Source of the DNA: Escherichia coli
GTDB lineage: Bacteria > Pseudomonadota > Gammaproteobacteria > Enterobacterales > Enterobacteriaceae
Length of the DNA stretch: 64,000 nt
Assembly: GCF_030013205.1 (NCBI RefSeq)
Contig: NZ_CP122648.1
Direction: 5' to 3' (one strand)
Shown here piece by piece: positions 12,501 through 58,748 of this stretch (positions within the stretch are counted from its first letter, which is position 1; each line of letters starts with the position of its first letter). Under the pieces are notes generated by a model that was not told where the DNA came from, did not search any database, and saw nothing but the letters and a program-made list of their open reading frames with translations. The translations under genes were made by a program, and so were the position numbers.

Positions 12501-13449
12501 GTTGTGCTGCCAGTCGGGTTGCCAGTTCCGGCAGCGTTTCTTGCGCCTCAATATGAATACCCAACGGCAAAACGTTGAGCACGGGTCCGGTAGCCGTCAG
12601 CGCCGCCGAGCCCAGTCGACGCATAAAGATAAATCCGGCAGCGTAGTCCATGCGATTGCACAATCGCCCCAGCCACAAGGCTGCCAACGCAAGGGCTAAA
12701 TCGGTACGCTGCACACCTGAAAGTTGCGTAGCCAGCTGGCGGAATTCCCCGTCAGTAAATTCCAGTTTCAGGCGAAGAATATCTGCCGAAGCGCTGCGCC
12801 CCGGTAAAGGTGCCGGAGAAAGTGACGCGGGCGGTGGCAGTTGACGACGCTGTTCCGCCCAGAATGCCGCATCACGCTGCCAGGCTTCACTTTCGCGGTA
12901 CTGCTGATACTCTTCCACTACATCAGCGAAAGGCGTAAACGGCGAAGCAGGCGTTGGTTCGCCACGCAGCCATGCGCAGTAAATATTGGCGATCTGGCGG
13001 GTAATGGCCGGGAAACTGAAGCCATCGACCAGCAAATGGTGATAACGCTGATACCAGTACCAGCGGTTATCCGCCACCAGTATCAACTGATGAAAGACCA
13101 GTGGTTTACCGCTATCGACGCGCAGATCTTGTTGCAATTCCGCCTGCATTAATGCCCGCGCAGTACCGTGCGGATCAATGTTGGTTCGCAGGTCGATAAT
13201 TTCTGGCAGTTCGAACGTCAGCGCATCATCGACCCACTGCCAGACTTCGCCGTTATCTTCCGTAAAACGCATCCGCAGCGTATCTGCTTGCGCTAATCCG
13301 GCAACCACCGCGCGGGCCAGTAATGGCGCATCAACCTCTCCGGTTAACTCAACGTAATGCGCCACGCTCCAGGCGGAGGGTAAATCCGACAGTTTTTCTG
13401 CCATCCAGATGCCGGGCTGTGCAGCGACCAAAGGTAAATGCTGGCTCAT
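9568..13449 (-). CDS. entF: enterobactin non-ribosomal peptide synthetase EntF (C-A-PCP-TE)
   Basis: ORF 9568..13587; start chosen at MSQHLPLVAAQPGIWMAEKL (1293 aa); adenylation motif TSGSTGRPKG and thioesterase GYSLGG seen. Confidence 0.95.
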   Translation of the reverse strand: MSQHLPLVAAQPGIWMAEKLSDLPSAWSVAHYVELTGEVDAPLLARAVVAGLAQADTLRMRFTEDNGEVWQWVDDALTFELPEIIDLRTNIDPHGTARALMQAELQQDLRVDSGKPLVFHQLILVADNRWYWYQRYHHLLVDGFSFPAITRQIANIYCAWLRGEPTPASPFTPFADVVEEYQQYRESEAWQRDAAFWAEQRRQLPPPASLSPAPLPGRSASADILRLKLEFTDGEFRQLATQLSGVQRTDLALALAALWLGRLCNRMDYAAGFIFMRRLGSAALTATGPVLNVLPLGIHIEAQETLPELATRLAAQLKKMRRHQRYDAEQIVRDSGRAAGEEPLFGPVLNIKVFDYQLDIPGVQTRTHTLATGPVNDLELALFPDEHGDLSIEILANKQRYDEPTLIHHAERLKMLIAQFAADPALLCGDVDIMLPGEYAQLAQINATQVEIPETTLSALVAEQAAKTPDAPALADARYQFSYLEMREQVVALANLLRERGVKPGDSVAVALPRSVFLTLALHAIVETGAAWLPLDTGYPDDRLKMMLEDARPSLLITTDDQLPRFADVPDLTSLCYNAPLTPQGSAPLQLSQPHHTAYIIFTSGSTGRPKGVMVGQTAIVNRLLWMQNHYPLTGEDVVAQKTPCSFDVSVWEFFWPFIAGAKLVMAEPEAHRDPLAMQQFFAEYGVTTTHFVPSMLAAFVASLTPQTARQNCATLKQVFCSGEALPADLCREWQQLTGVPLHNLYGPTEAAVDVSWYPAFGEELAQVRGSSVPIGYPVWNTGLRILDAMMHPVPPGVAGDLYLTGIQLAQGYLGRPDLTASRFIANPFAPGERMYRTGDVARWLDNGAVEYLGRSDDQLKIRGQRIELGEIDRVMQALPDVEQAVTHACVINQAAATGGDARQLVGYLVSQSGLPLDTTALQAQLRETLPPHMVPVVLLQLPQLPLSANGKLDRKALPLPELKAQAPGRAPKAGSETIIAAAFSSLLGCDVQDADADFFALGGHSLLAMKLAAQLSRQFTRQVTPGQVMVASTVAKLATIIDGEEDSSRRMGFETILPLREGNGPTLFCFHPASGFAWQFSVLSRYLDPQWSIIGIQSPRPNGPMQTAANLDEVCEAHLATLLEHQPHGPYYLLGYSLGGTLAQGIAARLRARGEQVAFLGLLDTWPPETQNWQEKEANGLDPEVLAEINREREAFLAAQQGSTSTELFTTIEGNYADAVRLLTTAHSVPFDGKATLFVAERTLQEGMNPERVWSPWIAELDIYRQDCAHVDIISPGAFEKIGPIIRATLNR

Positions 13450-13664
13450 TGCGCCTCCTGCAACTGGGTGAAATTCGACGGTGTCAGAGTACGCCAGTGG
13501 GCTTCCAGCCACTGCTGGCAGGACGCCTGTGACTGCGGCTGACACACAACGTCCCAGCCTGCCGGTAAGGCGCATTGTTGCGGCCACAGACTGAATTGCC
13601 CCTGCGCATTGCGCAAAATGTAAAACGCTCCCTGCGGATCATCGAAGGGATTACTGAATGCCAT
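13446..13664 (-). CDS. ybdZ: MbtH-like protein YbdZ
   Basis: 72-aa product MAFSNPFDDPQGAFYILRNAQGQFSLWP…; overlaps the entF start by 4 nt. Confidence 0.93.
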   Translation of the reverse strand: MAFSNPFDDPQGAFYILRNAQGQFSLWPQQCALPAGWDVVCQPQSQASCQQWLEAHWRTLTPSNFTQLQEAQ

Positions 13665-13666
13665 AT

Positions 13667-14869
13667 TCAACTCCTGTCATGGAAAAGTGGTTGCCAGAGG
13701 TCGATTAGCCCCTGCATCAAGCCACCGCGCCAACAAAGCGCATCATGTCCGCCGTCAACCTGACGCCAGAAAATGGATTCTTTTATGGGGTGTAATTGCG
13801 CATACAGCGCCTGATTGGCCCGCATGATCATCGGCTCGCGAATACCCGCTTCCAGCACAATGCGCAGACCTTCGGCGCTAACTTCACCAGCTTTAAGTTG
13901 CTCAAGTAACACGCCCTCTTGCTGCCCGCCCCGATGCGGCCACCAGTACGATCCTGACTGGCTTAATACACAGCCAAAGCGTTCAGGCCAGTTTAGTCCG
14001 GCATACAGCGCAGAAAGCCCACCAAAACTCTGCCCGGCGACCACGGTGCGATCGGCGCGATCGCTAAAAGGGGCAATAGCTTTCACCAGGGGTAATAACT
14101 CTTGCTGTACTGCCAGCCAGAAATCCGCATTACACGGCAGTTCGTGGGCGCGGTGCGGGGTGTCGATAGCGTCGATCAACACATACACGGCGGGAGGAAG
14201 TTGCTGACGATGGGTCAGCGAAGTTAGCGCAGGCCAGACGGGCATACTCTGCGCCCAAAATTCGCCATCAAGCAAAACTGCCAGCGGGCGTTCTTCTGCT
14301 GTTGCATCGCCGGTGGTAAAAATCCATACACGGCGTGAATTTTTCAGCCGCTCACTTTTCCAGATAATTTCTTTGACAGGCGTTTCTGGCGCTTGCGGAC
14401 AATCCCATCCCGGTTGCAGAGGCGCTTGCGGCATTTCGAGTGCAGAAACAGCGTGCCCTCGCCCGCCTTTCCAGCTTTGTGGATTCAGCGGATCGGCTAT
14501 CGCCTGGGGTAATAGTTTTCGCCAGCCTTCACGTAATTCGAGGCGATCGGGGGATGGTGCAGAAAAAATGTCATCGCGTTCGGTGGGAATAAAACAGTAG
14601 CTGCCGCGCCAGTTGGCATTAAGTTGTGTCGTCCACTGCCAGACGTTGGTACCTGCAATTCGCTGCATCGACTGGGGCTGGCTGTTCTGATGGTGATCGG
14701 TCACACCAGTGATGTAGACCCATACGCGCTTTATCGTCGAGTATTCTTCAGAACCTTGGGGATCACGCCACCAGAAAGTGACCTCAAACATTTCGTCATT
14801 CAGACGCTGCCATTCCGGGCCATGTTTCGACTGCCACCAGCTCTCACTTCCTACTTTTAACGCCGTCAC
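13667..14869 (-). CDS. fes: enterochelin esterase Fes
   Basis: 400-aa ORF MTALKVGSESWWQSKHGPEWQRLNDEMFEV…; esterase GQSFGG motif. Confidence 0.95.
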   Translation of the reverse strand: MTALKVGSESWWQSKHGPEWQRLNDEMFEVTFWWRDPQGSEEYSTIKRVWVYITGVTDHHQNSQPQSMQRIAGTNVWQWTTQLNANWRGSYCFIPTERDDIFSAPSPDRLELREGWRKLLPQAIADPLNPQSWKGGRGHAVSALEMPQAPLQPGWDCPQAPETPVKEIIWKSERLKNSRRVWIFTTGDATAEERPLAVLLDGEFWAQSMPVWPALTSLTHRQQLPPAVYVLIDAIDTPHRAHELPCNADFWLAVQQELLPLVKAIAPFSDRADRTVVAGQSFGGLSALYAGLNWPERFGCVLSQSGSYWWPHRGGQQEGVLLEQLKAGEVSAEGLRIVLEAGIREPMIMRANQALYAQLHPIKESIFWRQVDGGHDALCWRGGLMQGLIDLWQPLFHDRS

Positions 14870-18147: not shown

Positions 18148-18268
18148 TTGACAATACCCGGAGCGATTCGCCCGCAGCCAATGCTGACTGCGGGCGAAAG
18201 TGTAAAGCAGGTGCCTTACTACTCTGACCTGACAACCGGATATGCGGGGATTACTCCCCGCACAACGG

Positions 18269-18421
18269 CTACTTCTTCGGTTCGTAAGCGAGAACAGCCT
18301 TAAACTCAATATTACGTTCCTTCACCGTAAACTCACACAGCGAGTCTCCGACCAGAAGCGTAAATCCCAGCACCGTTAAACACAGCACTATGACTGCCAC
18401 AAGGGCATATTTCGTCAGCAT
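18269..18421 (-). CDS. hokE: Hok-family type I toxin (HokE-like), copy 1
   Basis: 50-aa product [50 protein letters not shown]. Confidence 0.88.
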
Positions 18422-18566
18422 GTTTATATTGCCTCCATGCGAAGAAGGGACTACCATCCGAGTTGTTGAGGTTCGGAGTGGCAGCCCCAGGATTGATAGA
18501 AATATCTCCTGGGGCTTCATCTTTCCAGACCTCAGAGTTAACCTGAAACCGGAAAGCTTCAGGCAC
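18333..18566 (-). CDS. mok-like overlapping reading frame (modulator of killing), copy 1
   Basis: 77-codon [35 protein letters not shown]… starting upstream of hok and ending inside it in a different frame, as expected for mok. Confidence 0.5.
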
Positions 18567-18600
18567 CCGCTGTTATCTTACCCTTCCTTAGCAAAATAAC
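18530..18600 (+). ncRNA. candidate Sok antisense RNA, copy 1 (position approximate)
   Basis: Inferred from hok/sok architecture only: antisense to the mok translation-initiation region; no promoter or terminator mapped. Confidence 0.25.
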
Positions 18601-18771
18601 TGTTTATTTATACAGCAAGTCCTGTTTCGGACTTCTGTTGGCAACACTCGTTATTGCTCGTAAAACGAAATCGCCCGCAGCCATCACTGACCACGGGCGA
18701 AAGTGTAAAGCAGGTGCCTTACCACCCTGACCTGACAACCGGATATGCGGGGATTACTCCCCGCACAACGG

Positions 18772-18924
18772 CTACTTCTTCGGTTCGTAAGCGAGAACAG
18801 CCTTAAACTCAATATTACGTTCCTTCACCGTAAACTCACACAGCGAGTCTCCGACTAGAAGCGTAAATCCCAGTACCGTCAAACACAGCACTATGACTGC
18901 CACAAGGGCATATTTCGTCAGCAT
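18772..18924 (-). CDS. Hok-family type I toxin, copy 2 (identical protein)
   Basis: Same 50-aa Hok sequence; here the upstream mok frame is fused in frame, giving a 98-codon ORF 18772..19068. Confidence 0.8.
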
Positions 18925-19029
18925 GTTTATATTGCCTCCATGCGAAGAAGGGACTACCATCCAAATTGTCTGGTTTGGAGTGGCAGCCCCAGGGTTGATA
19001 GAAATATCTCCTGGGGCTTCATCTTTCCA

Positions 19030-19100
19030 GACCTCAGAGTTAACCTGAAACCGGAAAGCTTCAGGCACCCGCCGTTATCTTACCCTTCTTCAGCAAAATA
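19030..19100 (+). ncRNA. candidate Sok antisense RNA, copy 2 (position approximate)
   Basis: Inferred by analogy with copy 1. Confidence 0.2.
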
Positions 19101-19355
19101 GCTGTTTATTTATACAGTGAGTCCTGTTTCGGACTTCTCACTCCTCATTTGATCAACTGAAGCTGAACCCGTTTTTTTCTGCATGCCTCAATCGTCAAAA
19201 TTCTTCGCCACCAGTCCGCACTGCCATAACTTGTCATATTGCAAAATGTAGCCAATTTGCTTCAGTCACCATCATCAAAAAAAGAAACATTCCAGAACTT
19301 CCGCATCTCGCCCAGTCGCTCCCACTTCTATACTGAATAGAAAACGCCAACATAA

Positions 19356-34038: not shown

Positions 34039-35925
34039 ATGTCAACCGGATTACGTTTCACACTGGAAGTGGACGGCCTGCCGCCGGATGCTTTTGCGGT
34101 GGTTTCCTTTCATCTGAACCAGTCACTCTCTTCGCTCTTTTCCCTCGATCTCTCCCTGGTCAGCCAGCAGTTTCTCTCCCTTGAATTTGCGCAGGTGCTG
34201 GACAAAATGGCCTACCTGACGATATGGCAGGGCGATGAAGTACAGCGCCGGGTGAAAGGCGTGGTGACCTGGTTTGAACTCGGGGAGAACGACAAAAACC
34301 AGATGCTGTACAGCATGAAGGTGCACCCGCCGCTGTGGCGTGCCGGTCTGCGCCAGAACTTCCGTATCTTCCAGAACGAGGACATCAAAAGCATCCTCGG
34401 CACGATGTTGCAGGAAAACGGGGTGACCGAATGGAGTCCGCTGTTCAGCGAGCCGCATCCTTCCCGTGAGTTTTGTGTCCAGTACGGTGAGACTGATTAC
34501 GATTTCCTGTGCCGGATGGCGGCGGAGGAAGGCATCTTCTTTTATGAGGAGCATGCTTACAAAAGTACCGACCAGAGCCTGGTGCTGTGCGACACAGTCC
34601 GCCATCTGCCCGAATCTTTTGAAATCCCATGGAACCCGAACACCCGTACCGAGGTGAGCACCCTCTGCATCAGCCAGTTCCGCTACAGCGCACAAATCCG
34701 CCCTTCTTCCGTGGTGACCAAAGACTACACCTTTAAACGCCCCGGCTGGGCCGGACGTTTTGAACAGGAAGGCCAGCACCAGGACTACCAGCGCACGCAG
34801 TATGAAGTGTATGACTACCCCGGACGTTTCAAGGGTGCCCACGGGCAGAACTTTGCCCGCTGGCAGATGGACGGCTGGCGAAACAATGCAGAAACCGCGC
34901 GGGGAATGAGTCGTTCGCCGGAGATATGGCCGGGACGACGAATTGTGCTGACGGGGCATCCGCAGGCGAACCTGAACCGGGAATGGCAGGTGGTGGCAAG
35001 TGAACTGCACGGCGAACAGCCACAGGCGGTGCCAGGACGGCAGGGAGCGGGGACGGCGCTGGAGAACCATTTTGCGGTGATCCCGGCAGACAGAACATGG
35101 CGACCACAGCCGTTGCTGAAACCGCTGGTCGACGGCCCGCAGAGCGCTGTCGTGACAGGACCGGCAGGCGAGGAAATCTTCTGCGACGAACATGGTCGCG
35201 TGCGGGTGAAGTTCAACTGGGACCGTTATAACCCGGCAGACCAAGACAGTTCGTGCTGGATCCGTGTGGCACAGGCGTGGGCAGGCACCGGTTTTGGCCA
35301 CCTGGCGATACCACGTGTGGGTCAGGAAGTCATTGTGGACTTCCTCAACGGCGATCCGGACCAGCCGATCATTATGGGGCGCACCTACCACCAGGAAAAC
35401 CGCCCCCCCGGCAGCCTGCCGGGAACAAAGACGCAGATGACCATCCGCTCCAAAACGTACATGGGCAGCGGATTTAATGAGCTGAAGTTTGATGATGCGA
35501 CAGGGAGAGAACAGGTCTACATCCACGCGCAGAAGAACATGGATACCGAAGTGCTCAACGACCGTACCACCACCGTAAAACACGATCACCGCGAAACCGT
35601 AAAAAATGACCAGACGGTCACGATCCAGGAAGGTAACCGCCTTCTTACGGTGGAAAAAGGCCACAAGATCACCGGAGTACTGAAAGGGTCTTTATCTGAG
35701 GATGTCTTTCAGGACAGAGGCACGATTGCCGGTTCGGTGCATGTTGACGCTGTAAACAATGGTGGCGAAGGCGACGGTATACAGGCTTATACGGCGATTA
35801 AGGAAATTTTGCTGGCCGTGGAGGAAAGCAAAATTGCGCTGACGCCGGATGGCATTCAGCTACAGGTCGGGGAATCGACGGTACCGGATCACAGGTGTCA
35901 GTCACACCGACGGGATCCGGCTTAA
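34039..35925 (+). CDS. vgrG: VgrG (Rhs-element Vgr protein / T6SS spike), 3' end replaced out of frame at a deletion junction near 35880
   Basis: 628-aa ORF with gp27/gp5-like VgrG sequence (…GRVRVKFNWDRYNPADQDSSCWIRVAQAWAG…IALTPDGIQLQVGESTV) ending in an unrelated 15-aa tail PDHRCQSHRRDPA. Confidence 0.8.
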   Translation: MSTGLRFTLEVDGLPPDAFAVVSFHLNQSLSSLFSLDLSLVSQQFLSLEFAQVLDKMAYLTIWQGDEVQRRVKGVVTWFELGENDKNQMLYSMKVHPPLWRAGLRQNFRIFQNEDIKSILGTMLQENGVTEWSPLFSEPHPSREFCVQYGETDYDFLCRMAAEEGIFFYEEHAYKSTDQSLVLCDTVRHLPESFEIPWNPNTRTEVSTLCISQFRYSAQIRPSSVVTKDYTFKRPGWAGRFEQEGQHQDYQRTQYEVYDYPGRFKGAHGQNFARWQMDGWRNNAETARGMSRSPEIWPGRRIVLTGHPQANLNREWQVVASELHGEQPQAVPGRQGAGTALENHFAVIPADRTWRPQPLLKPLVDGPQSAVVTGPAGEEIFCDEHGRVRVKFNWDRYNPADQDSSCWIRVAQAWAGTGFGHLAIPRVGQEVIVDFLNGDPDQPIIMGRTYHQENRPPGSLPGTKTQMTIRSKTYMGSGFNELKFDDATGREQVYIHAQKNMDTEVLNDRTTTVKHDHRETVKNDQTVTIQEGNRLLTVEKGHKITGVLKGSLSEDVFQDRGTIAGSVHVDAVNNGGEGDGIQAYTAIKEILLAVEESKIALTPDGIQLQVGESTVPDHRCQSHRRDPA

Positions 35926-38900
35926 ACTGACGTACCACGCCAGCGGCTACCTGAAAGCCATTCACCGCACGGATAACGGCATACAGACGCTGGCGACCTA
36001 CGAACAGGATGCGCGGGGGCGGCTGACAGAAGCGGATGCGCGGCTGGACTACCACCTGTTTTATGAGTACGACGCTGCGGACCGGATCATCCGCTGGTCC
36101 GATAACGACCAGACGTGGAGCCGTTTCACCTACGATGAACAGGGCCGGTGCGTGAATGTCACCGGGGCGGAGGGCTATTACAACGCCACGCTGGACTATG
36201 GTGACGGCTGCACCACCGTGACGGACGGCAAGGGCATTCACCGTTATTACTATGATCCTGACGGCAATATTCTGCGGGAAGCAGCGCCGGACGGCAGCAC
36301 CACCATGTATGAATGGGATGAATTCCATCACCTGCTGGCCCGTCACTCCCCTGCCGGGCGGGTGGAGAAATTTGAATACAACGCCGCACACGGTCAGTTA
36401 AGCCGTTACACGGCGGCAGACGGCGCGGAGTGGCAGTACCGCTATGATGAGCGCGGCCTGCTCAGCAACATCACCGACCCTGCCGGGCAGACGTGGACAC
36501 AGCAGTGTGATGAACGCGGCCTGCCGGTAAGTCTGGTGTCGCCACAGGGCGAAGAGACCCGGCTGGCATACACCGCTCAGGGGCTGCTGTCGGGAATATT
36601 CCGCCAGGATGAACGGCGTCTGGGCATAGAGTACGACCACCACAACCGGCCGGAAACACTCACCGACGTGATGGGCCGTGAACACCACACCGAATACAGC
36701 GGTCACGACCTGCCGGTGAAGATGCGCGGCCCCGGCGGTCAGTCAGTGCGGTTACAGTGGCAGCAGCACCATAAACTGAGCGGCATTGAACGTGCTGGAA
36801 CCGGCGCGGAAGGATTCCGCTACGACCGCCACGGCAACCTGCTGGCCTGGACGGACGGCAACGGCGTTGTCTGGACAATGGAATACGGCCCGTTTGATTT
36901 GCCGGTGGCGCGAACGGACGGTGAAGGCCACCGCTGGCAGTACCGCTACGATAAAGACACGCTGCAACTGACAGAAGTCATTAACCCGCAGGGTGAGTCA
37001 TATCTTTATGTTCTGGATAACTGCGGCCGGGTGACGGAAGAGCATGACTGGGGCGGCGTGGTCTGGCGTTACCGCTATGACGCCGATGGCCTGTGTACCG
37101 CCAGGGTCAACGGCCTGGAGGAAACCATCCTCTACAGCCGGGACGCCGCAGGCCGCCTGGCAGAAGTCATCACGCCGGAAGGCAAAACGCAGTATGCGTA
37201 TGACAAATCCGGCAGGCTTACGGGTATCTTCAGCCCGGACGGCACATCACAGCGCACCGGCTATGACGAACGCGGGCGGGTGAATGTCACCACTCAGGGC
37301 CGACGGGCCATTGAATACCACCACCCCGATGAACACACCGTCATCCGCTGTATCCTGCCACCGGAAGATGAACGCGACAGACACCCCGGTGAATCCCTGC
37401 TGAAAACCACGTACCGCTACAACGCCGCCGGAGAACTGACGGAGGTTATCCTGCCGGGGGATGAGACGCTGACGTTCAGCCGTGATGAGGCAGGACGTGA
37501 AGTGCTCCGGCACAGTAACCGGGGTTTTGCCTGTGAACAGGGCTGGAATGCAGCCGGCCAGTCTGTCAGCCAGCGCGCCGGATTTTTCCCGGAAGAAGCC
37601 ACATGGGGCGGGCTGGTTCCGTCACTGGCGCGGGAATACCGTTATGACAGCGCGGGCAATGTGTCGGCTGTCACCAGCCGGGAAGATTACGGACGGGAAA
37701 CACGGCGGGAATACCGGCTGGACCGGAACGGCCAGGTCACGGCGGTGACAGCCTCAGGCACCGGGCTGGGCTATGGCGAAGGCGATGAGTCCTATGGCTA
37801 TGACAGCTGCGGCTACCTGAAGGCGCAGTCTGCGGGCTGGCACCGGATAAGTGAAGAGACTGACCAGTATGCCGGAGGCCACCGGCTGAAACAGGCCGGA
37901 AACACGCAGTATGACTATGACGCCGCAGGCCGGATGGTCAGCCGCACCAGACACCGTGACGGCTATCGCCCGGAAACAGAGCGGTTCCGGTGGGACAGCC
38001 GTGACCAGCTGACCGGGTATTGCAGCGCACAGGGTGAGCAGTGGGAATACCGCCACGACGCCAGCGGCAGACGAACAGAGAAACGCTGCGACCGGAAGAA
38101 AATCCGCTTCACGTATCTGTGGGACGGCGACAGTATTGCGGAAATCCGGGAATACCGCGATGATAAACTGTACAGCGTACGGCACCTGGTGTTTAACGGC
38201 TTTGAGCTGATAAGCCAGCAGTTCAGCCGGGTACGGCAGGCGCATCCGTCGGTGGCCCCGCAGTGGGTGACACGGACGAATCATGCGGTGAGCGACCTGA
38301 CGGGCCGTCCGCTGATGCTCTTTAACAGTGAAGGTAAAACCGTCTGGCGACCGGGACAGACCAGCCTGTGGGGGCTGGCACTCAGCCTGCCCGCAGACAC
38401 CGGCTACCCGGACCCGCGCGGGGAACTGGACCCGGAAGCCGACCCCGGCCTGCTGTATGCGGGACAGTGGCAGGATGCAGAATCCGGGCTGTGCTATAAC
38501 CGGTTCCGGTATTACGAGCCGGAAACCGGGATGTACCTGGTGAGTGATCCGCTGGGGTTGCTGGGGGGTGAGCAGACTTACCGGTATGTGCCAAATCCGT
38601 GTGGGTGGGTTGATCCGCTGGGATTGGCTGCAAGTTCTAAAATCAGCAGTTTGATGGACTATATTGGCGATGGTCGTCGTGTTAGTGGGCATACGGGTTT
38701 CCTGGATGGGGTTCGTTTATCACGTAGTCAAATAAACAATATTGCTAAAGAAATGGAGAAGCTAGGAATTAAAGTAATAAGGAAAGCAGATAAATATTTG
38801 CCACCAAATGCTAGGGCAGCTTTTGATTATGGCCTTCGCAATATTTATCTTAGGAAAAATGCCACCTTATATGAGGTGTATCATGAAGTGATTCATGCTA

Positions 38901-39079
38901 AGCAATTTGCGAAAATTGGACGAGAAGCATACGAAGCACTAGGACGTTTATCTAGGGAGGAACACGTTCTAAATGAAATATTAAAAAGTAAAAATTTATT
39001 CAATGAAGCGGAAATAGCTCATGCCATAAAATATGTTGAGGGATTGAGAGAAAAATTCATGATGGGACTAATAAATTGA
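35849..39079 (+). CDS. Rhs protein remnant: YD-repeat core (5'-truncated, no PAAR/N-terminal region) plus a 150-aa variable C-terminal toxin domain
   Basis: 1076-aa ORF rich in YD repeats, core-end motif YVPNPCGWVDPLGL at about 38585-38626, then a low-GC C-terminal tail containing HEVIH; the only ATG is a fortuitous one inside vgrG-derived sequence. Confidence 0.8.
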   Translation: MAFSYRSGNRRYRITGVSHTDGIRLKLTYHASGYLKAIHRTDNGIQTLATYEQDARGRLTEADARLDYHLFYEYDAADRIIRWSDNDQTWSRFTYDEQGRCVNVTGAEGYYNATLDYGDGCTTVTDGKGIHRYYYDPDGNILREAAPDGSTTMYEWDEFHHLLARHSPAGRVEKFEYNAAHGQLSRYTAADGAEWQYRYDERGLLSNITDPAGQTWTQQCDERGLPVSLVSPQGEETRLAYTAQGLLSGIFRQDERRLGIEYDHHNRPETLTDVMGREHHTEYSGHDLPVKMRGPGGQSVRLQWQQHHKLSGIERAGTGAEGFRYDRHGNLLAWTDGNGVVWTMEYGPFDLPVARTDGEGHRWQYRYDKDTLQLTEVINPQGESYLYVLDNCGRVTEEHDWGGVVWRYRYDADGLCTARVNGLEETILYSRDAAGRLAEVITPEGKTQYAYDKSGRLTGIFSPDGTSQRTGYDERGRVNVTTQGRRAIEYHHPDEHTVIRCILPPEDERDRHPGESLLKTTYRYNAAGELTEVILPGDETLTFSRDEAGREVLRHSNRGFACEQGWNAAGQSVSQRAGFFPEEATWGGLVPSLAREYRYDSAGNVSAVTSREDYGRETRREYRLDRNGQVTAVTASGTGLGYGEGDESYGYDSCGYLKAQSAGWHRISEETDQYAGGHRLKQAGNTQYDYDAAGRMVSRTRHRDGYRPETERFRWDSRDQLTGYCSAQGEQWEYRHDASGRRTEKRCDRKKIRFTYLWDGDSIAEIREYRDDKLYSVRHLVFNGFELISQQFSRVRQAHPSVAPQWVTRTNHAVSDLTGRPLMLFNSEGKTVWRPGQTSLWGLALSLPADTGYPDPRGELDPEADPGLLYAGQWQDAESGLCYNRFRYYEPETGMYLVSDPLGLLGGEQTYRYVPNPCGWVDPLGLAASSKISSLMDYIGDGRRVSGHTGFLDGVRLSRSQINNIAKEMEKLGIKVIRKADKYLPPNARAAFDYGLRNIYLRKNATLYEVYHEVIHAKQFAKIGREAYEALGRLSREEHVLNEILKSKNLFNEAEIAHAIKYVEGLREKFMMGLIN

Positions 39080-39327
39080 TAAAACATAACAAAATAACTA
39101 TCGAAATGGCTCTTGACTTGGCTCGGCGTGAGTTAGAGTTAAGGGAAATTCCTTATATTAAAAATAGTCTACATGCCAATTACAGCTATAAATCTATTAG
39201 TATTGGTTCTAAGCAAGGTTGGTTAATTTCAGCGAAATTAAAAGTCCCTGAAACTTTTGAGCCTGATATGATATTTATTGAGATATCTGACCCAGAAGGT
39301 TTTATTAATATTCCTGATGTATTATAA
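39076..39327 (+). CDS. candidate Rhs immunity protein (small acidic protein encoded directly after the rhs CT)
   Basis: 83-codon ORF overlapping the rhs stop (TTGA); low-GC like the CT domain; start ambiguous (TTG at 39076 or ATG at 39106). Confidence 0.55.
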   Translation: MIKHNKITIEMALDLARRELELREIPYIKNSLHANYSYKSISIGSKQGWLISAKLKVPETFEPDMIFIEISDPEGFINIPDVL

Positions 39328-39441
39328 ACTACGTTAGAGGTTTTGTTATAAGGTAATCGGTTTCTTTACAGACCGCTGGCGTACATCGCACAGAGGCTGC
39401 TAACAGGGATATTCCTGCCTGGATGAACGCAAGGCAAGATC

Positions 39442-39753
39442 ATGGAAATAGTGATATACATCACTATTTCCATCCTGATTTTAGCTATCGCATTAATAAA
39501 ACAGCGGATGTTAGCCAATATCGAAACCAGTAACCCGTATCACGCCCAGTACATCCTGCGCCGCCGCGATGATTACCTGGTGCTGTTCGACCGTGATGCC
39601 CTGAGCTGCCGCTTCTTTTATGACGCCTTTCCGGGAATGCGTCTGCGCCACCAGGTGACCGGCGATACCGACGATGACCGCCTGGCACACAGCCCCGCAG
39701 ACCGGATGTATACAGGGAAAGATCATCAGAAGTACACTTTTTGTACTAAATAA
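39442..39753 (+). CDS. hypothetical small protein, possibly a chimeric or orphan fragment
   Basis: 103-codon ORF: hydrophobic AT-rich N-terminus joined to a GC-rich 3' portion (39530-39720) that looks displaced from another gene. Confidence 0.3.
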   Translation: MEIVIYITISILILAIALIKQRMLANIETSNPYHAQYILRRRDDYLVLFDRDALSCRFFYDAFPGMRLRHQVTGDTDDDRLAHSPADRMYTGKDHQKYTFCTK

Positions 39754-39779
39754 TTCACATTTTATGTTTAAAAATTGAG

Positions 39780-41060
39780 ATATTCCTCATTACCTGAAGC
39801 TGTTTTTTATTGCTTATACATGATCAAATACTCCTTACATAATTAAGGAGAACAAAATGGAACTTAAAAAATTGATGGAACATATTTCTATTATTCCCGA
39901 TTACAGACAAGCCTGGAAAGTGGAACATAAATTATCGGATATTCTATTGTTGACTATTTGTGCCGTTATTTCTGGTGCGGAAGATTGGGAAGATATAGAG
40001 GATTTTGGGGAAACACATCTCGATTTTTTGAAGCAATATGGTGATTTTGAAAATGGTATTCCTGTTCACGATACCATTGCCAGAGTTGTATCCTGTATCA
40101 GTCCTGCAAAATTTCACGAGTGCTTTATTAACTGGATGCGTGACTGCCATTCTTCAGATGATAAAGACGTCATTGCAATTGATGGAAAAACGCTCCGGCA
40201 CTCTTATGACAAGAGTCGCCGCAGGGGAGCGATTCATGTCATTAGTGCGTTCTCAACAATGCACAGTCTGGTCATCGGACAGATCAGGACGGATGAGAAA
40301 TCCAATGAGATTACAGCTATCCCAGAACTTCTTAACATGCTGGATATTAAAGGAAAAATCATCACAACTGATGCGATGGGTTGCCAGAAAGATATTGCAG
40401 AGAAGATACAAAAACAGGGAGGTGATTATTTATTCGCGGTAAAAGGAAACCAGGGGCGGCTAAATAAAGCCTTCGAGGAAAAATTTCCGCTGAAAGAATT
40501 AAATAATCCAGAGCATGACAGTTACGCAATGAGTGAAAAGAGTCACGGCAGAGAAGAAATCCGTCTTCACATTGTTTGCGATGTCCCTGATGAACTTATT
40601 GATTTCACGTTTGAATGGAAAGGTCTGAAGAAATTATGCGTGGCAGTCTCCTTTCGGTCAATAATAGCAGAACAAAAGAAAGAGCCAGAAATGACGGTCA
40701 GATATTATATTAGTTCTGCTGATTTAACCGCAGAGAAGTTCGCCACAGCAATCCGAAACCACTGGCACGTGGAGAATAAGCTGCACTGGCGTCTGGACGT
40801 GGTAATGAATGAAGACGACTGCAAAATAAGAAGAGGAAATGCAGCAGAATTATTTTCAGGGATACGGCACATCGCTATTAATATTTTGACGAATGATAAG
40901 GTATTCAAGGCAGGGTTAAGACGTAAGATGCGAAAAGCAGCCATGGACAGAAACTATCTGGCGTCAGTCCTTGCGGGGAGCGGGCTTTCGTAATCTTGCC
41001 CTGCCTGCTCACCTCCTCCAGGCACTTCCACTACATGATGACCTGCTCGGTGCCACCGCT
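39780..41060 (+). mobile_element. H-repeat (ISAs1-family) insertion element; boundaries approximate
   Basis: Contains the 378-aa H-repeat-associated transposase ORF typical of Rhs-linked H-rpt elements; terminal repeats not resolved. Confidence 0.5.
39857..40993 (+). CDS. H-repeat-associated protein / ISAs1-family transposase
   Basis: 378-aa [54 protein letters not shown]… recognised as the YhhI/YdcC/YbfD H-rpt protein family. Confidence 0.85.
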
Positions 41061-54340: not shown

Positions 54341-55015
54341 ATGAAAACAATCCATGACATCCGGCGGTCTAACGCCAGAAAACTGAGAGATGGTGTTGGC
54401 GGGAATTCTTCCTTTGCCACTATGATTGATCGCGAGCCAACCCAGACCAGCAGGTTTATGGGAGATGGTGCTACTAAAAATATCGGTGACAGCATGGCAC
54501 GACACATCGAAAAATGTTTCGACCTGCCTGTCGGATGGCTCGATCAAGAACACCAGACAACGAACATCACAAAAAAACCTGATGTTTCAATCACTAATAA
54601 ACAAATCACATTAGTCCCTGTCATATCATGGGTACAGGCCGGAGCATGGAAAGAAGTTGGATATTCTGAGGTTGATTTGAGCACAGCAGAAACGTATCCC
54701 TGCCCTGTACCCTGTGGGGAAATGACTTATATCCTGCGGGTGATAGGTGATTCAATGATTGATGAGTACCGCCCGGGAGACATGATTTTTGTCGATCCTG
54801 AAGTACCTGCCTGCCACGGTGACGACGTTATTGCATTGATGCACGATACAGGTGAAACCACCTTCAAAAGGTTGATAGAAGATGGGACACAGCGTTATCT
54901 CAAAGCGTTAAACCCAAACTGGCCTGAGCCTTACATTAAGATCAACGGTAATTGCTCTATAATTGGAACTGTGATTTTCTCAGGAAAACCAAGAAGATAC
55001 AAAATCAAAGCCTAA
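54341..55015 (+). CDS. CI-like phage repressor (N-terminal HTH, C-terminal LexA/S24-type autopeptidase)
   Basis: 224-aa ORF with the S24 serine motif (VIGDSM) and a downstream lysine (TFKRL). Confidence 0.85.
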   Translation: MKTIHDIRRSNARKLRDGVGGNSSFATMIDREPTQTSRFMGDGATKNIGDSMARHIEKCFDLPVGWLDQEHQTTNITKKPDVSITNKQITLVPVISWVQAGAWKEVGYSEVDLSTAETYPCPVPCGEMTYILRVIGDSMIDEYRPGDMIFVDPEVPACHGDDVIALMHDTGETTFKRLIEDGTQRYLKALNPNWPEPYIKINGNCSIIGTVIFSGKPRRYKIKA

Positions 55016-55026
55016 TCAATGTTTAT

Positions 55027-55050
55027 GAACCTGCTTCGGCAGGTTTTTTT
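55027..55050 (+). terminator. intrinsic terminator after cI
   Basis: gaacctgc-ttcg-gcaggtt followed by ttttttt. Confidence 0.75.
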
Positions 55051-55054
55051 ATAC

Positions 55055-55095
55055 TTGACAATGTACCTTTGAGATACATAATGTACCCAAGAGAA
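55055..55095 (+). promoter_or_regulatory. pL-like sigma70 promoter with OL-like operator half-sites
   Basis: TTGACA (55055-55060), 16 bp, CATAAT (55077-55082); two AATGTACC motifs overlap it, matching the TGTACC half-site of the OR palindromes. Confidence 0.55.
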
Positions 55096-56214: not shown

Positions 56215-56577
56215 ATGGCTAGCGAACGCAGTACTGATGTGCAGGCATTTATCGGGGAGCTGGACGGCGGCGTATTTGAAACCAAAATCGGCGCAGTTCT
56301 CAGTGAAGTCGCTTCCGGTGTGATGAACACGAAAACCAAAGGTAAGGTCTCACTCAACCTGGAAATCGAACCATTTGATGAGAACCGTGTGAAAATCAAA
56401 CACAAACTCTCATATATTCGCCCGACTAACCGCGGGAAAATTTCCGAAGAAGACACCACCGAAACGCCGATGTATGTCAATCGCGGTGGTCGCCTGACTA
56501 TTCTGCAGGAAGACCAGGGACAATTACTGACTCTTGCCGGTGAACCTGACGGAAAACTCCGCGCAGCAGGTCGTTAA
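56215..56577 (+). CDS. yfdP: YfdP-like prophage protein (CPS-53 homologue as I recall)
   Basis: 120-aa product MASERSTDVQAFIGELDGGVFETKIGAVLSEV… with GAGGAG 9 nt upstream of the ATG. Confidence 0.7.
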   Translation: MASERSTDVQAFIGELDGGVFETKIGAVLSEVASGVMNTKTKGKVSLNLEIEPFDENRVKIKHKLSYIRPTNRGKISEEDTTETPMYVNRGGRLTILQEDQGQLLTLAGEPDGKLRAAGR

Positions 56578-56642: not shown

Positions 56643-57467
56643 ATGTCTCAGAACTTAGACGCAACCGCAATTAATCAAATCCATGCCCTTATTTCTGCTC
56701 AGGGTGTTAATGAAATTATCAGTAAGATTGGTGCCGATGCTGTGGCATTGCCTGAGAATTTCCGCATTCATGATCTGGAAAAATTTAATTTAAATCGCTT
56801 CCGTTTCCGTGGTGCACTTTCCACTGCCAGCATCGATGATTTTACCCGTTATTCTAAAGATCTTGCAGATGAAGGCACCCGCTGCTTTATCGATGCCGAT
56901 AATATGCGTGCCGTCAGTGTGCTTAACCTGGGTACTATTGATGAGCCAGGTCACGCAGATAACACTGCCACTCTCAAACTGAAAAAGACAGCACCGTTCT
57001 CTGCTCTGTTGTCTGTTAACGGCGAGCGTAACTCCCAGAAGTCACTGGCAGAATGGATCGAAGACTGGGCCGACTACCTTGTGGGCTTTGATGCTAATGG
57101 TGACGCCATTCAAGCAACAAAAGCGGCTGCGGCAGTCCGTAAAATCACGATTGAAGCAAACCAGACCGCTGATTTTGAAGATAATGACTTCAGCGGCAAA
57201 CGCTCCCTGATGGAGTCTGTCGAAGCGAAGACCAAAGACATTATGCCAGTGGCATTTGAATTTAAATGCGTTCCGTTTGAAGGTCTGAAAGAACGTCCGT
57301 TTAAATTACGCCTCAGCATTATCACTGGCGATCGTCCTGTACTGGTTCTGCGCATTATTCAGCTGGAAGCGGTGCAGGAAGAAATGGCTAACGAATTTCG
57401 TGATCTGCTTGTTGAGAAATTCAAAGACAGCAAAGTAGAAACCTTTATTGGTACTTTCACCGCCTGA
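56643..57467 (+). CDS. yfdQ: YfdQ-like prophage protein (unknown function)
   Basis: 274-aa [33 protein letters not shown]…. Confidence 0.7.
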
Positions 57468-57594
57468 TTTCATTACTGCAAATGCCCCTGCGGGGGCATT
57501 TATGGAAACGTAATTAACTCAATAATCACCGGATGGTGAGGGCTTCCTTTTACCAGAATTCAGCGCGGTGCAGTGCATATACGTGGAGAACAAA

Positions 57595-58656
57595 ATGTCA
57601 TTTATTAAAACTTTTTCCGGGAAGCATTTTTATTATGACAAGATAAATAAAGACGACATCGATATTAACGATATCGCGGTTTCCCTTTCAAATATCTGTC
57701 GCTTTGCCGGTCATCTTTCGCACTTCTACAGCGTCGCCCAACATGCGGTTCTTTGCAGCCAGCTGGTGCCGCAGGAATTTGCTTTTGAAGCGTTAATGCA
57801 TGATGCAACAGAAGCGTATTGCCAGGACATTCCCGCACCACTGAAACGCCTTCTTCCTGACTATAAACGGATGGAAGAAAAAATAGACGCCGTAATCCGT
57901 GAGAAATACGGGTTATCAACTCAGACAAAGGCAAAGCATCTTGCCATGATAAAGGCCATTCTCCGTGCTGCAGAACGCGACTGGAAGTGGCTGGAAAAAG
58001 CGCCTGTCATCAAGATACCAGCGGTCAGAAACAAGCGAGTCAGATGGCTGGAAAAGGAGGAAGCAAAACGCCTTATTGATGAGTGCCCCGAACCACTGAA
58101 ATCTGTCGTCAAGTTTGCGCTGGCAACTGGTCTGAGAAAGTCGAACATCATAAATCTGGAATGGCAACAAATCGACATGCAGCGACGAGTTGCCTGGGTG
58201 AATCCAGAAGAGAGCAAATCAAACCGCGCCATTGGTGTGGCGCTGAACGATACCGCCTGTAAAGTGTTGCGTGATCAAATAGGCAAGCATCACAAATGGG
58301 TGTTTGTACATACCAAGGCGGCTAAGCGAGCAGATGGAACATCAACGCCTGCGGTCAGGAAGATGCGCATCGACAGCAAGACATCATGGCTATCAGCTTG
58401 TCGTCGTGCAGGAATTGAAGATTTCCGTTTCCATGACCTCAGACACACCTGGGCAAGCTGGCTGATCCAGTCAGGCGTCCCATTATCTGTGCTTCAGGAA
58501 ATGGGCGGATGGGAGTCCATAGAAATGGTTCGTAGGTATGCTCACCTTGCGCCTAATCATTTGACAGAGCATGCAAGGAAAATAGACGACATTTTTGGTG
58601 ATAATGTCCCAAATATGTCCCACTGTGGAATTATGGAGGATATAAAGAAGGCGTAA
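57595..58656 (+). CDS. chimeric ORF: HD-domain phosphohydrolase N-terminus (YfdR-like) fused in frame to a tyrosine-recombinase catalytic domain (IntD-like)
   Basis: N-terminal 115 aa [15 protein letters not shown]…AGHLSHFY…[14 protein letters not shown] (HD motifs); the rest (…[19 protein letters not shown]…[10 protein letters not shown]…VRRYAHL…) is an integrase C-terminal domain with R/H-x-x-R/Y residues; ends 15 bp from argU. Confidence 0.8.
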
Positions 58657-58671
58657 CTGATTGAATTGTAA

Positions 58672-58748
58672 TGGCGCGCCCTGCAGGATTCGAACCTGCG
58701 GCCCACGACTTAGAAGGTCGTTGCTCTATCCAACTGAGCTAAGGGCGC
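58672..58748 (-). tRNA. argU: tRNA-Arg (anticodon UCU), argU
   Basis: Reverse complement reads GCGCCCTTAGCTCAGTTGGATAGAGCAACGACCTTCTAAGTCGTGGGCCGCAGGTTCGAATCCTGCAGGGCGCGCCA (77 nt, encoded CCA). Confidence 0.95.

Follow-up and report, generated by a model that had tools for sequence, protein, structure and literature searches.

Does the long open reading frame (ORF) that adjoins the argU gene of some Escherichia coli chromosomes encode a two-domain enzyme, or is it a relic of prophage decay? The ORF lies on the plus strand within the window, i.e., the whole stretch of 64,000 nucleotides that was analysed, and runs without interruption from an ATG at 57595 to a stop codon at 58654–58656 (57595–58656, 353 aa). 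The preliminary description of this DNA placed an ORF beside argU, and it is found exactly there, 15 bp from the tRNA-Arg(TCT) gene. A putative ribosome binding site, GGAG, is located 8 nt 5′ of the ATG; an in-frame GTG occurs further upstream, at 57568, and a start at this codon would give a protein of 362 aa, longer by nine residues. Profile searches divide the product in two. Pfam places the YfbR-like HD family (PF12917) at residues 41–104 (E 1.5e-4) and Phage_integrase (PF00589) at residues 150–321 (E 2e-46, model positions 1–171 of 172), while PHROGs assigns residues 1–128 to the deoxyribonucleoside 5′-monophosphate phosphatase family (E 1e-71) and residues 96–344 to an integrase family (E 5e-68). 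Database annotation is less uniform. The equivalent of 57910–58656 is labelled in RefSeq/PGAP as a pseudogene, “site-specific integrase, incomplete, missing N-terminus”, and the yfdR fragment carries no annotation there; the exact 353-aa protein is found on 28 contigs of a public protein collection, for some submitters as a “hypothetical protein”. The ORF scan, the Pfam matches, and the comparison with a parental locus lead us to consider it very probable that the fused ORF is a pseudogene, which arose from one illegitimate-recombination deletion in an argU-integrated lambdoid prophage of the DLP12 family.

The parental arrangement is preserved in E. coli 2014C-4587 (locus L003), where the order yfdP-yfdQ-yfdR-yfdS-like-yfdT-xis-like HTH fragment-intD-argU is contiguous and all genes from yfdP to intD at argU have one orientation. 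In this strain yfdR encodes 178 aa and intD 387 aa, and the yfdS-like gene is annotated as “phage protein”. The deletion and its endpoints can be read directly from the comparison: the ORF of the window equals L003 12522–15106 minus 12843–14365, base for base, with 1523 bp removed. Its 5′ part (57595..57915, plus strand, 321 nt, yfdR codons 1–107) is 100% identical to L003 12522–12842, and its 3′ part (57914..58656, plus strand, 743 nt, intD codons 142–387 and the stop codon) is 100% identical to L003 14364–15106. The common prefix of 321 nt and the common suffix of 743 nt give 1064 nt for an ORF of 1062 nt, and this prefix/suffix overlap is a 2-bp microhomology, TA, present in both parental sequences and located at 57914..57915 (plus strand). 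The junction reads …GAAATACGGGTTA up to the breakpoint and TCAACTCAGAC… after it. The same conclusion comes from other genomes, many of which match yfdQ together with nt 1–319 of the ORF and have these sequences annotated as yfdQ and yfdR; in several strains the distance from the yfdQ/yfdR match to the intD match is 1523 bp greater than in the window. Both halves are 100% identical in nucleotide sequence to intact genes of other strains, and resemblance by chance is excluded. The proposal that an in-frame deletion had fused yfdR to int is thus borne out by the 1523-bp difference from L003, the TA overlap, and the identical flanks.

In this course of events, the parent had an early-left operon running into int (yfdP-yfdQ-yfdR-yfdS-like-yfdT-xis(fragment)-intD-attL/argU), from which a single deletion took away 1523 bp. 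It removed yfdR codons 108–178, the yfdS-like gene, yfdT, the xis-like ORF, the region upstream of int, and intD codons 1–141, after which the remnants of yfdR and intD are read through as one ORF of 353 aa. The microhomology of no more than 2 bp indicates illegitimate recombination rather than homologous exchange between prophages. The frame of intD relative to yfdR is +2 and 1523 mod 3 equals 2, so the two halves read through as one ORF. Computed shifts of the breakpoint by 1 or 2 bases give ORFs of 117 or 160 codons, and an in-frame junction is the outcome expected for one in three chance deletions. In strain E300010 (L002 12001–12400), the module has independently lost 873 bp (L003 12758–13630); nt 236 of yfdR here meets the 3′ end of yfdT, and the intD gene is intact. 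This second deletion in the yfdR-yfdT region shows that the module decays repeatedly and is evidently deletion-prone. The excisionase region has its own peculiarity. A 151-codon ORF with an excisionase-like HTH segment (MEPYSLTLDEACQFLKISRPTATNWIRTGRL...) is located at L003 13632–14087 and overlaps the start of intD, and the PGAP annotation of this ORF covers only 66 bp, as an incomplete HTH pseudogene; in this prophage family, xis may have become defective before the deletion, in the parental locus itself.

Exact comparison with the intact genes gives the composition of the fusion protein as YfdR 1–107 followed by IntD 142–387, which is also the result of the pairwise alignments to YfdR and IntD suggested at the outset. 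The preliminary description had recognised about 115 residues of YfdR-like HD sequence; the relationship is confirmed, at 100% identity, and the length has to be corrected to 107 residues. YfdR is a 178-aa HD-domain 5′-deoxynucleotidase (WP_000008165.1), and its gene shares with the fusion the upstream neighbours yfdP-yfdQ. Its first 107 residues, identical in the fusion, include H50 and H69-D70, so the H...HD part of the motif is kept. What is missing, when compared to YfdR, are residues 108–178, i.e., the C-terminal 40% of the fold, with the KYAD motif (D119) and the C-terminal helices. How much this means for the fold can be seen from the structure of the HD protein Atu1052 (PDB 2GZ4), to which YfdR aligns over residues 18–175, so that the fold spans the whole protein; the KYAD of YfdR aligns with the KKAD of 2GZ4 and is located beyond the junction residue 107. 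We take D119 to be a metal ligand, on the basis of the H..HD..D signature of the HD superfamily, reportedly defined by Aravind and Koonin in 1998, and of data on YfbR. The NCBIfam YfbR model covers in the fusion only its positions 40–97 of 197, with a score of 20 bits against a cut-off of 122. It should be kept in mind that Pfam matches full-length YfdR only at residues 41–104, the same span as in the fusion, and the truncation is therefore invisible to Pfam; it was established by the 2GZ4 alignment and by direct comparison with the parent. In the AlphaFold2 model residues 1–100 have pLDDT values of 35–66; the HD alignment was shallow, so an unfoldable fragment and a set of too few sequences are indistinguishable by this measure. 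With the C-terminal 40% and the conserved Asp gone, the phosphohydrolase role of the parent is expected to be lost.

The situation is different in the second half, where one domain is complete and the others are not. A tyrosine-recombinase C-terminal domain, in frame and with the catalytic R, H-x-x-R, and Y residues, was correctly recognised in the preliminary description: PF00589 covers residues 150–321, and R181, H280, R283, W306, and Y315 (fusion numbering) were located by motif, with R, H-x-x-R, and Y aligning with those of the HP1 integrase in an alignment to HP1 and archaeal Xer structures. Residues 108–353 of the fusion are identical to residues 142–387 of IntD (387 aa, e.g., WP_001298992.1, 2014C-4587), with the same catalytic domain and residues and the same 15-bp distance to argU. 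In contrast to intD, the fusion has lost residues 1–141, the gene's own start, and the int upstream region. The claim that the arm- and core-binding domains are absent is right for the arm-binding domain, which is removed with IntD 1–141, and too strong for the core-binding domain, of which about 40 residues, one predicted helix (109–128) and a linker, are left. These domain losses are directly visible in the profile and parent comparisons. The XerA NCBIfam model matches the fusion only from profile position 55 of 263 onward, and the Pfam match to Phage_int_SAM_5 is weak and partial (model positions 59–92 of 98, E 0.34). AlphaFold2 likewise puts a single helix (109–128) and a linker in front of the catalytic domain, whose region is modelled with pLDDT above 90 over blocks 111–240 and 84–97 over 241–320. 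Foldseek with this model returned tyrosine recombinases only, and structures that consist of the catalytic domain alone fit best (HP1, TM 0.78; P2, TM 0.73; rmsd about 3 Å). The integrase part therefore resembles catalytic-domain constructs, namely, the C-terminal fragment of lambda Int, HP1 (1AIH), and P2 (5C6K); unlike the fusion, these fragments are laboratory constructs. Recombination at att sites by lambda-type integrases requires both the arm-binding and the core-binding domain, and isolated catalytic domains of this type are known for at most weak cleavage or topoisomerase activity and are not known to recombine att sites. As the arm-binding domain and most of the core-binding domain are gone, the fusion should not excise the element. 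Judged from its domain content, the product, if made, should be inactive in both parental roles. A side observation concerns the 90%-identity protein cluster of IntD, which also lists PbpC peptidoglycan glycosyltransferases of 544–770 aa and has a representative of 758 aa; this appears to be an oddity of database clustering, which a chimeric member may have caused, and not a biological relationship.

The surroundings of the ORF are those of a prophage that has lost most of its content. The integration target, argU, tRNA-Arg(TCT), was found by ARAGORN and the Rfam tRNA model at 58672–58748 on the minus strand, 15 bp from the stop codon of the fusion, and the fimZ and sfm fimbrial genes lie beyond it. 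A 50-nt direct repeat identifies the att copies: the int-proximal one is the 3′ part of argU (58670..58719), and the distal one, identical to it at 49 of 50 positions, is located between envY and ompT (48339..48388). The two copies bound a gutted DLP12-type prophage remnant of 10.3 kb. It contains ompT, an alpha/beta hydrolase gene, a SAM methyltransferase gene, ymfL, ymfT, ymfK, a hypothetical gene, yfdP, yfdQ, and the fusion, together with gene fragments (tail-fibre-assembly, HTH, and others) annotated as pseudogenes; the ymfL/ymfT/ymfK immunity region is intact. When compared to L003, Q and the lysis, porin, and structural genes are missing. The window and L003 are collinear only from 52867 to the junction, at 99.3% identity, and the missing genes have evidently been lost through at least one further deletion. 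Several details of this part of the remnant can be added. In the region 51617–53104, near 52867, the prophage has another and larger deletion junction, where a fragment of an HTH (replication-region) gene abuts the tail-fibre-assembly fragment. A 121-nt direct repeat (51698–51818/52747–52867, 89% identical) flanks the SAM methyltransferase gene (51979–52647), and Rfam matches an IS009 sRNA at 52745–52944 on the minus strand. The alpha/beta hydrolase gene is situated in 49886–51433, between ompT and the tail-fibre-assembly fragment and inside the att-flanked remnant; in E300010 appY occupies the ompT-adjacent position on that side.

Whether the fusion is ever made would depend on the leftward early operon at whose end it lies, downstream of ymfK. 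This gene, for a LexA/CI-type repressor, is annotated as intact at 54341..55015 on the plus strand. A scan for promoters and terminators found a terminator-like hairpin 3′ of ymfK (55027–55046, toward yfdP) and a promoter-like site, TTGACA-16-CATAAT (55055–55082), which faces yfdP-yfdQ-fusion and is a consensus match only; six such sites were counted against 7.7 expected in shuffled sequence, i.e., they are not enriched. Next come yfdP (56215..56577, plus strand; by annotation, L001 10621–10983, offset 45594), intact and in the same operon orientation, and yfdQ (DUF2303; 56643..57467, plus strand; by the ORF list and annotation), also intact and directly 5′ of the fusion. Expression of the fusion, if there is any, probably needs derepression, with transcription only from the repressor-controlled early promoter. 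With the ORF uninterrupted, the GGAG in place, and intact yfdP-yfdQ upstream, transcription of the operon may well lead to a polypeptide.

Away from the prophage, other features of the window were noted. The hokE/sok type I toxin-antitoxin system is present twice, in tandem, at 18168–19138; the units are about 470 nt long and 95% identical, and in each a hokE CDS is accompanied by a match to the Rfam sok model (18413–18568 and 18916–19070, minus strand). The region 34039–40993 contains vgrG (34039–35925), then a 1076-codon ORF (35849–39079), described in RefSeq as a pseudogene of an N-terminally incomplete zincin-like metallopeptidase toxin, and then an ISEc1 transposase gene (39857–40993); this region, with cusS on one side and the nfrBA genes on the other, resembles a T6SS effector island that has degraded.

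How widespread the fusion is was asked by megablast against 5426 complete E. coli genomes. It is present at full length and 100% identity in 17 of them (0.3%); thousands of others match only query positions 320–1062, annotated as intD. The deleted 1523-bp segment, at coverage of at least 80%, was found in 1104 of the 5426, so that strains without the deletion are common. All 17 carriers come from swine or wild boar, with ETEC-named and O139:H1 isolates among them, and their origins include at least South Korea and Belgium. Their clonal relationship is seen directly: in the 20 kb surrounding the locus their identity to the window is about 100%, and the next-best genomes reach at most 98.7% there and have an intact intD. 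In ETEC4079 there is no mismatch and one 7-nt gap to the window over 49.3 kb. The ORF sequence is the same in all 17 carriers, and no frameshift at the junction occurs in any of them, an eventuality that had been mentioned as one that would undermine the fusion. The search for the same junction in other genomes, proposed in the preliminary description, thus led to one clone, and the near-identity of the carriers indicates a single event in this clone, sequenced independently many times.

This distribution also bears on the most trivial explanation, namely that a mis-join or a frameshift in sequencing or assembly mimics a fusion. Prophage regions are rich in repeats and prone to mis-assembly, which is a general argument with nothing specific to this locus. 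The same fusion in independently sequenced carriers rules out an assembly artefact: the identical junction is present in 17 complete genomes, whose accession numbers belong to several distinct series and whose strains come from at least two countries, the exact protein occurs on 28 contigs, and the flanks are collinear over 20 kb, so that the probability left for this explanation is practically nil. Just as negligible is the chance that the 107 N-terminal residues represent a divergent but genuine N-terminal domain of an integrase and not YfdR. HMMER alignments to Xer models do reach into residues 69–106, and two-domain recombinases (Tn1549 Int, TM 0.58) have core-binding domains on which Foldseek loosely superposed the helical beginning of the model. 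However, the latter superposition, which concerns residues 1–100, was rejected, as it carries no weight at pLDDT 35–66. Residues 1–107 are 100% identical to YfdR 1–107 in both DNA and protein and match HD and 5′-deoxynucleotidase families, and the N-terminus of intact IntD is unrelated to them; a genuine integrase N-domain is thus ruled out by the YfdR identity, and the original reading of these residues stands. It could further be argued that two different prophages were joined, instead of one being shortened internally. Lambdoid prophages are mosaic, and yfdR-type modules are also present in CPS-53-type prophages, as partial matches in DH5alpha indicate. Such a mosaic join is nevertheless extremely improbable, since the 321- and 743-nt flanks are 100% identical to a single contiguous parent at the same chromosomal site, the 5 kb upstream are 99.3% identical to that parent, and a junction homology of 2 bp is unfit for homologous exchange.

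The debatable issue is whether an internal deletion could have created something useful. In such a functional hybrid, the YfdR fragment, e.g., as a DnaA-binding or dimerising module, would be combined with an active recombinase catalytic domain and kept by selection. Full-length YfdR, in the form of the K-12 CPS-53 homologue, was shown to bind DnaA domains I–II, the part of YfdR responsible not being mapped in that work (PMC4776307). The integrase catalytic domain is complete, the ORF is intact and preceded by the RBS-like GGAG, and yfdP-yfdQ upstream are intact as well. However, the HD fold is cut at residue 107 of 178, with loss of the conserved Asp, and is modelled at low confidence; little more than one helix of the core-binding domain remains and the arm-binding domain is gone; an in-frame result is expected in one third of random deletions; and the ORF is restricted to one clone with zero sequence variation. 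The architecture was also sought in two very large protein searches, and it is absent among the best matches of both. A word-indexed comparison with 5.8 billion proteins gave 6882 matches, of which the best 120 each covered at most 75% of the query, with PF00589 alone. When 1.84 billion representatives were searched exhaustively with phmmer, the best 150 matches were to the integrase part or to the HD part, never to both. Two proteins that at first looked like further HD-integrase fusions were rejected: the two stretches of P0193 belong to a tandem double-HD protein, and the stretch of P0279 (query 34–327) is an ordinary integrase with an over-extended alignment. P0193, a protein of 401 aa with two tandem YfdR-like HD domains, is an observation of its own from the exhaustive search among the representatives. 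We consider a functional hybrid very unlikely, and the corresponding caveat of the preliminary description gains no support, given two truncated domains, one clone, and an architecture not found elsewhere in these searches. A more elaborate proposal would have the fusion expressed from the early-left operon (e.g., in the SOS response) and acting either through the binding of DnaA by the YfdR fragment, to which a DNA-cleaving domain would be attached, or as a dominant-negative form against IntD-type integrases. It is a speculation with a slimmer chance still; if true, phages that enter the cell or already reside in it could have their IntD-type integrases disturbed by the dominant-negative form.

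If the fused ORF is the deletion-generated pseudogene that we consider very probable, then its consequence for the prophage is a loss of mobility, and the remnant of 10.3 kb would be unable to excise by its own means. In E. coli K-12, the DLP12 prophage, with an intact IntD, was excised in fewer than 1 per 100,000 cells, and excision of K-12 prophages with an inactive or missing integrase was undetectable (PMC3105296). The decay of intQ in Qin, and CP4-44, which has no integrase, likewise leave a fixed remnant in K-12 (Wang et al., 2010, PMC3105296); unlike in these cases, the truncated int gene described here continues the reading frame of an early gene located upstream of it, which results in one long ORF. 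The view that the deletion locked the prophage in place is reasonable in so far as the xis-like fragment and the 141 N-terminal residues of Int were removed. It gives only a partial picture, as Q and the lysis and structural genes are also lost and the element is a relic regardless of int.

The fused ORF is thus an ordinary relic of prophage decay in one pig E. coli clone and not a new enzyme. Its integrase part is already flagged as an incomplete pseudogene in RefSeq, and, as a textbook case of prophage decay, it has little biological weight. It is useful as a worked example that a long uninterrupted two-domain ORF can be an artefact of a deletion, and one porcine ETEC/O139:H1 clone can be recognised specifically by the exact junction. 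For the lineage itself, the 10.3-kb remnant, with ompT and the phage immunity region, has probably become a fixed part of the chromosome through the loss of int and xis.
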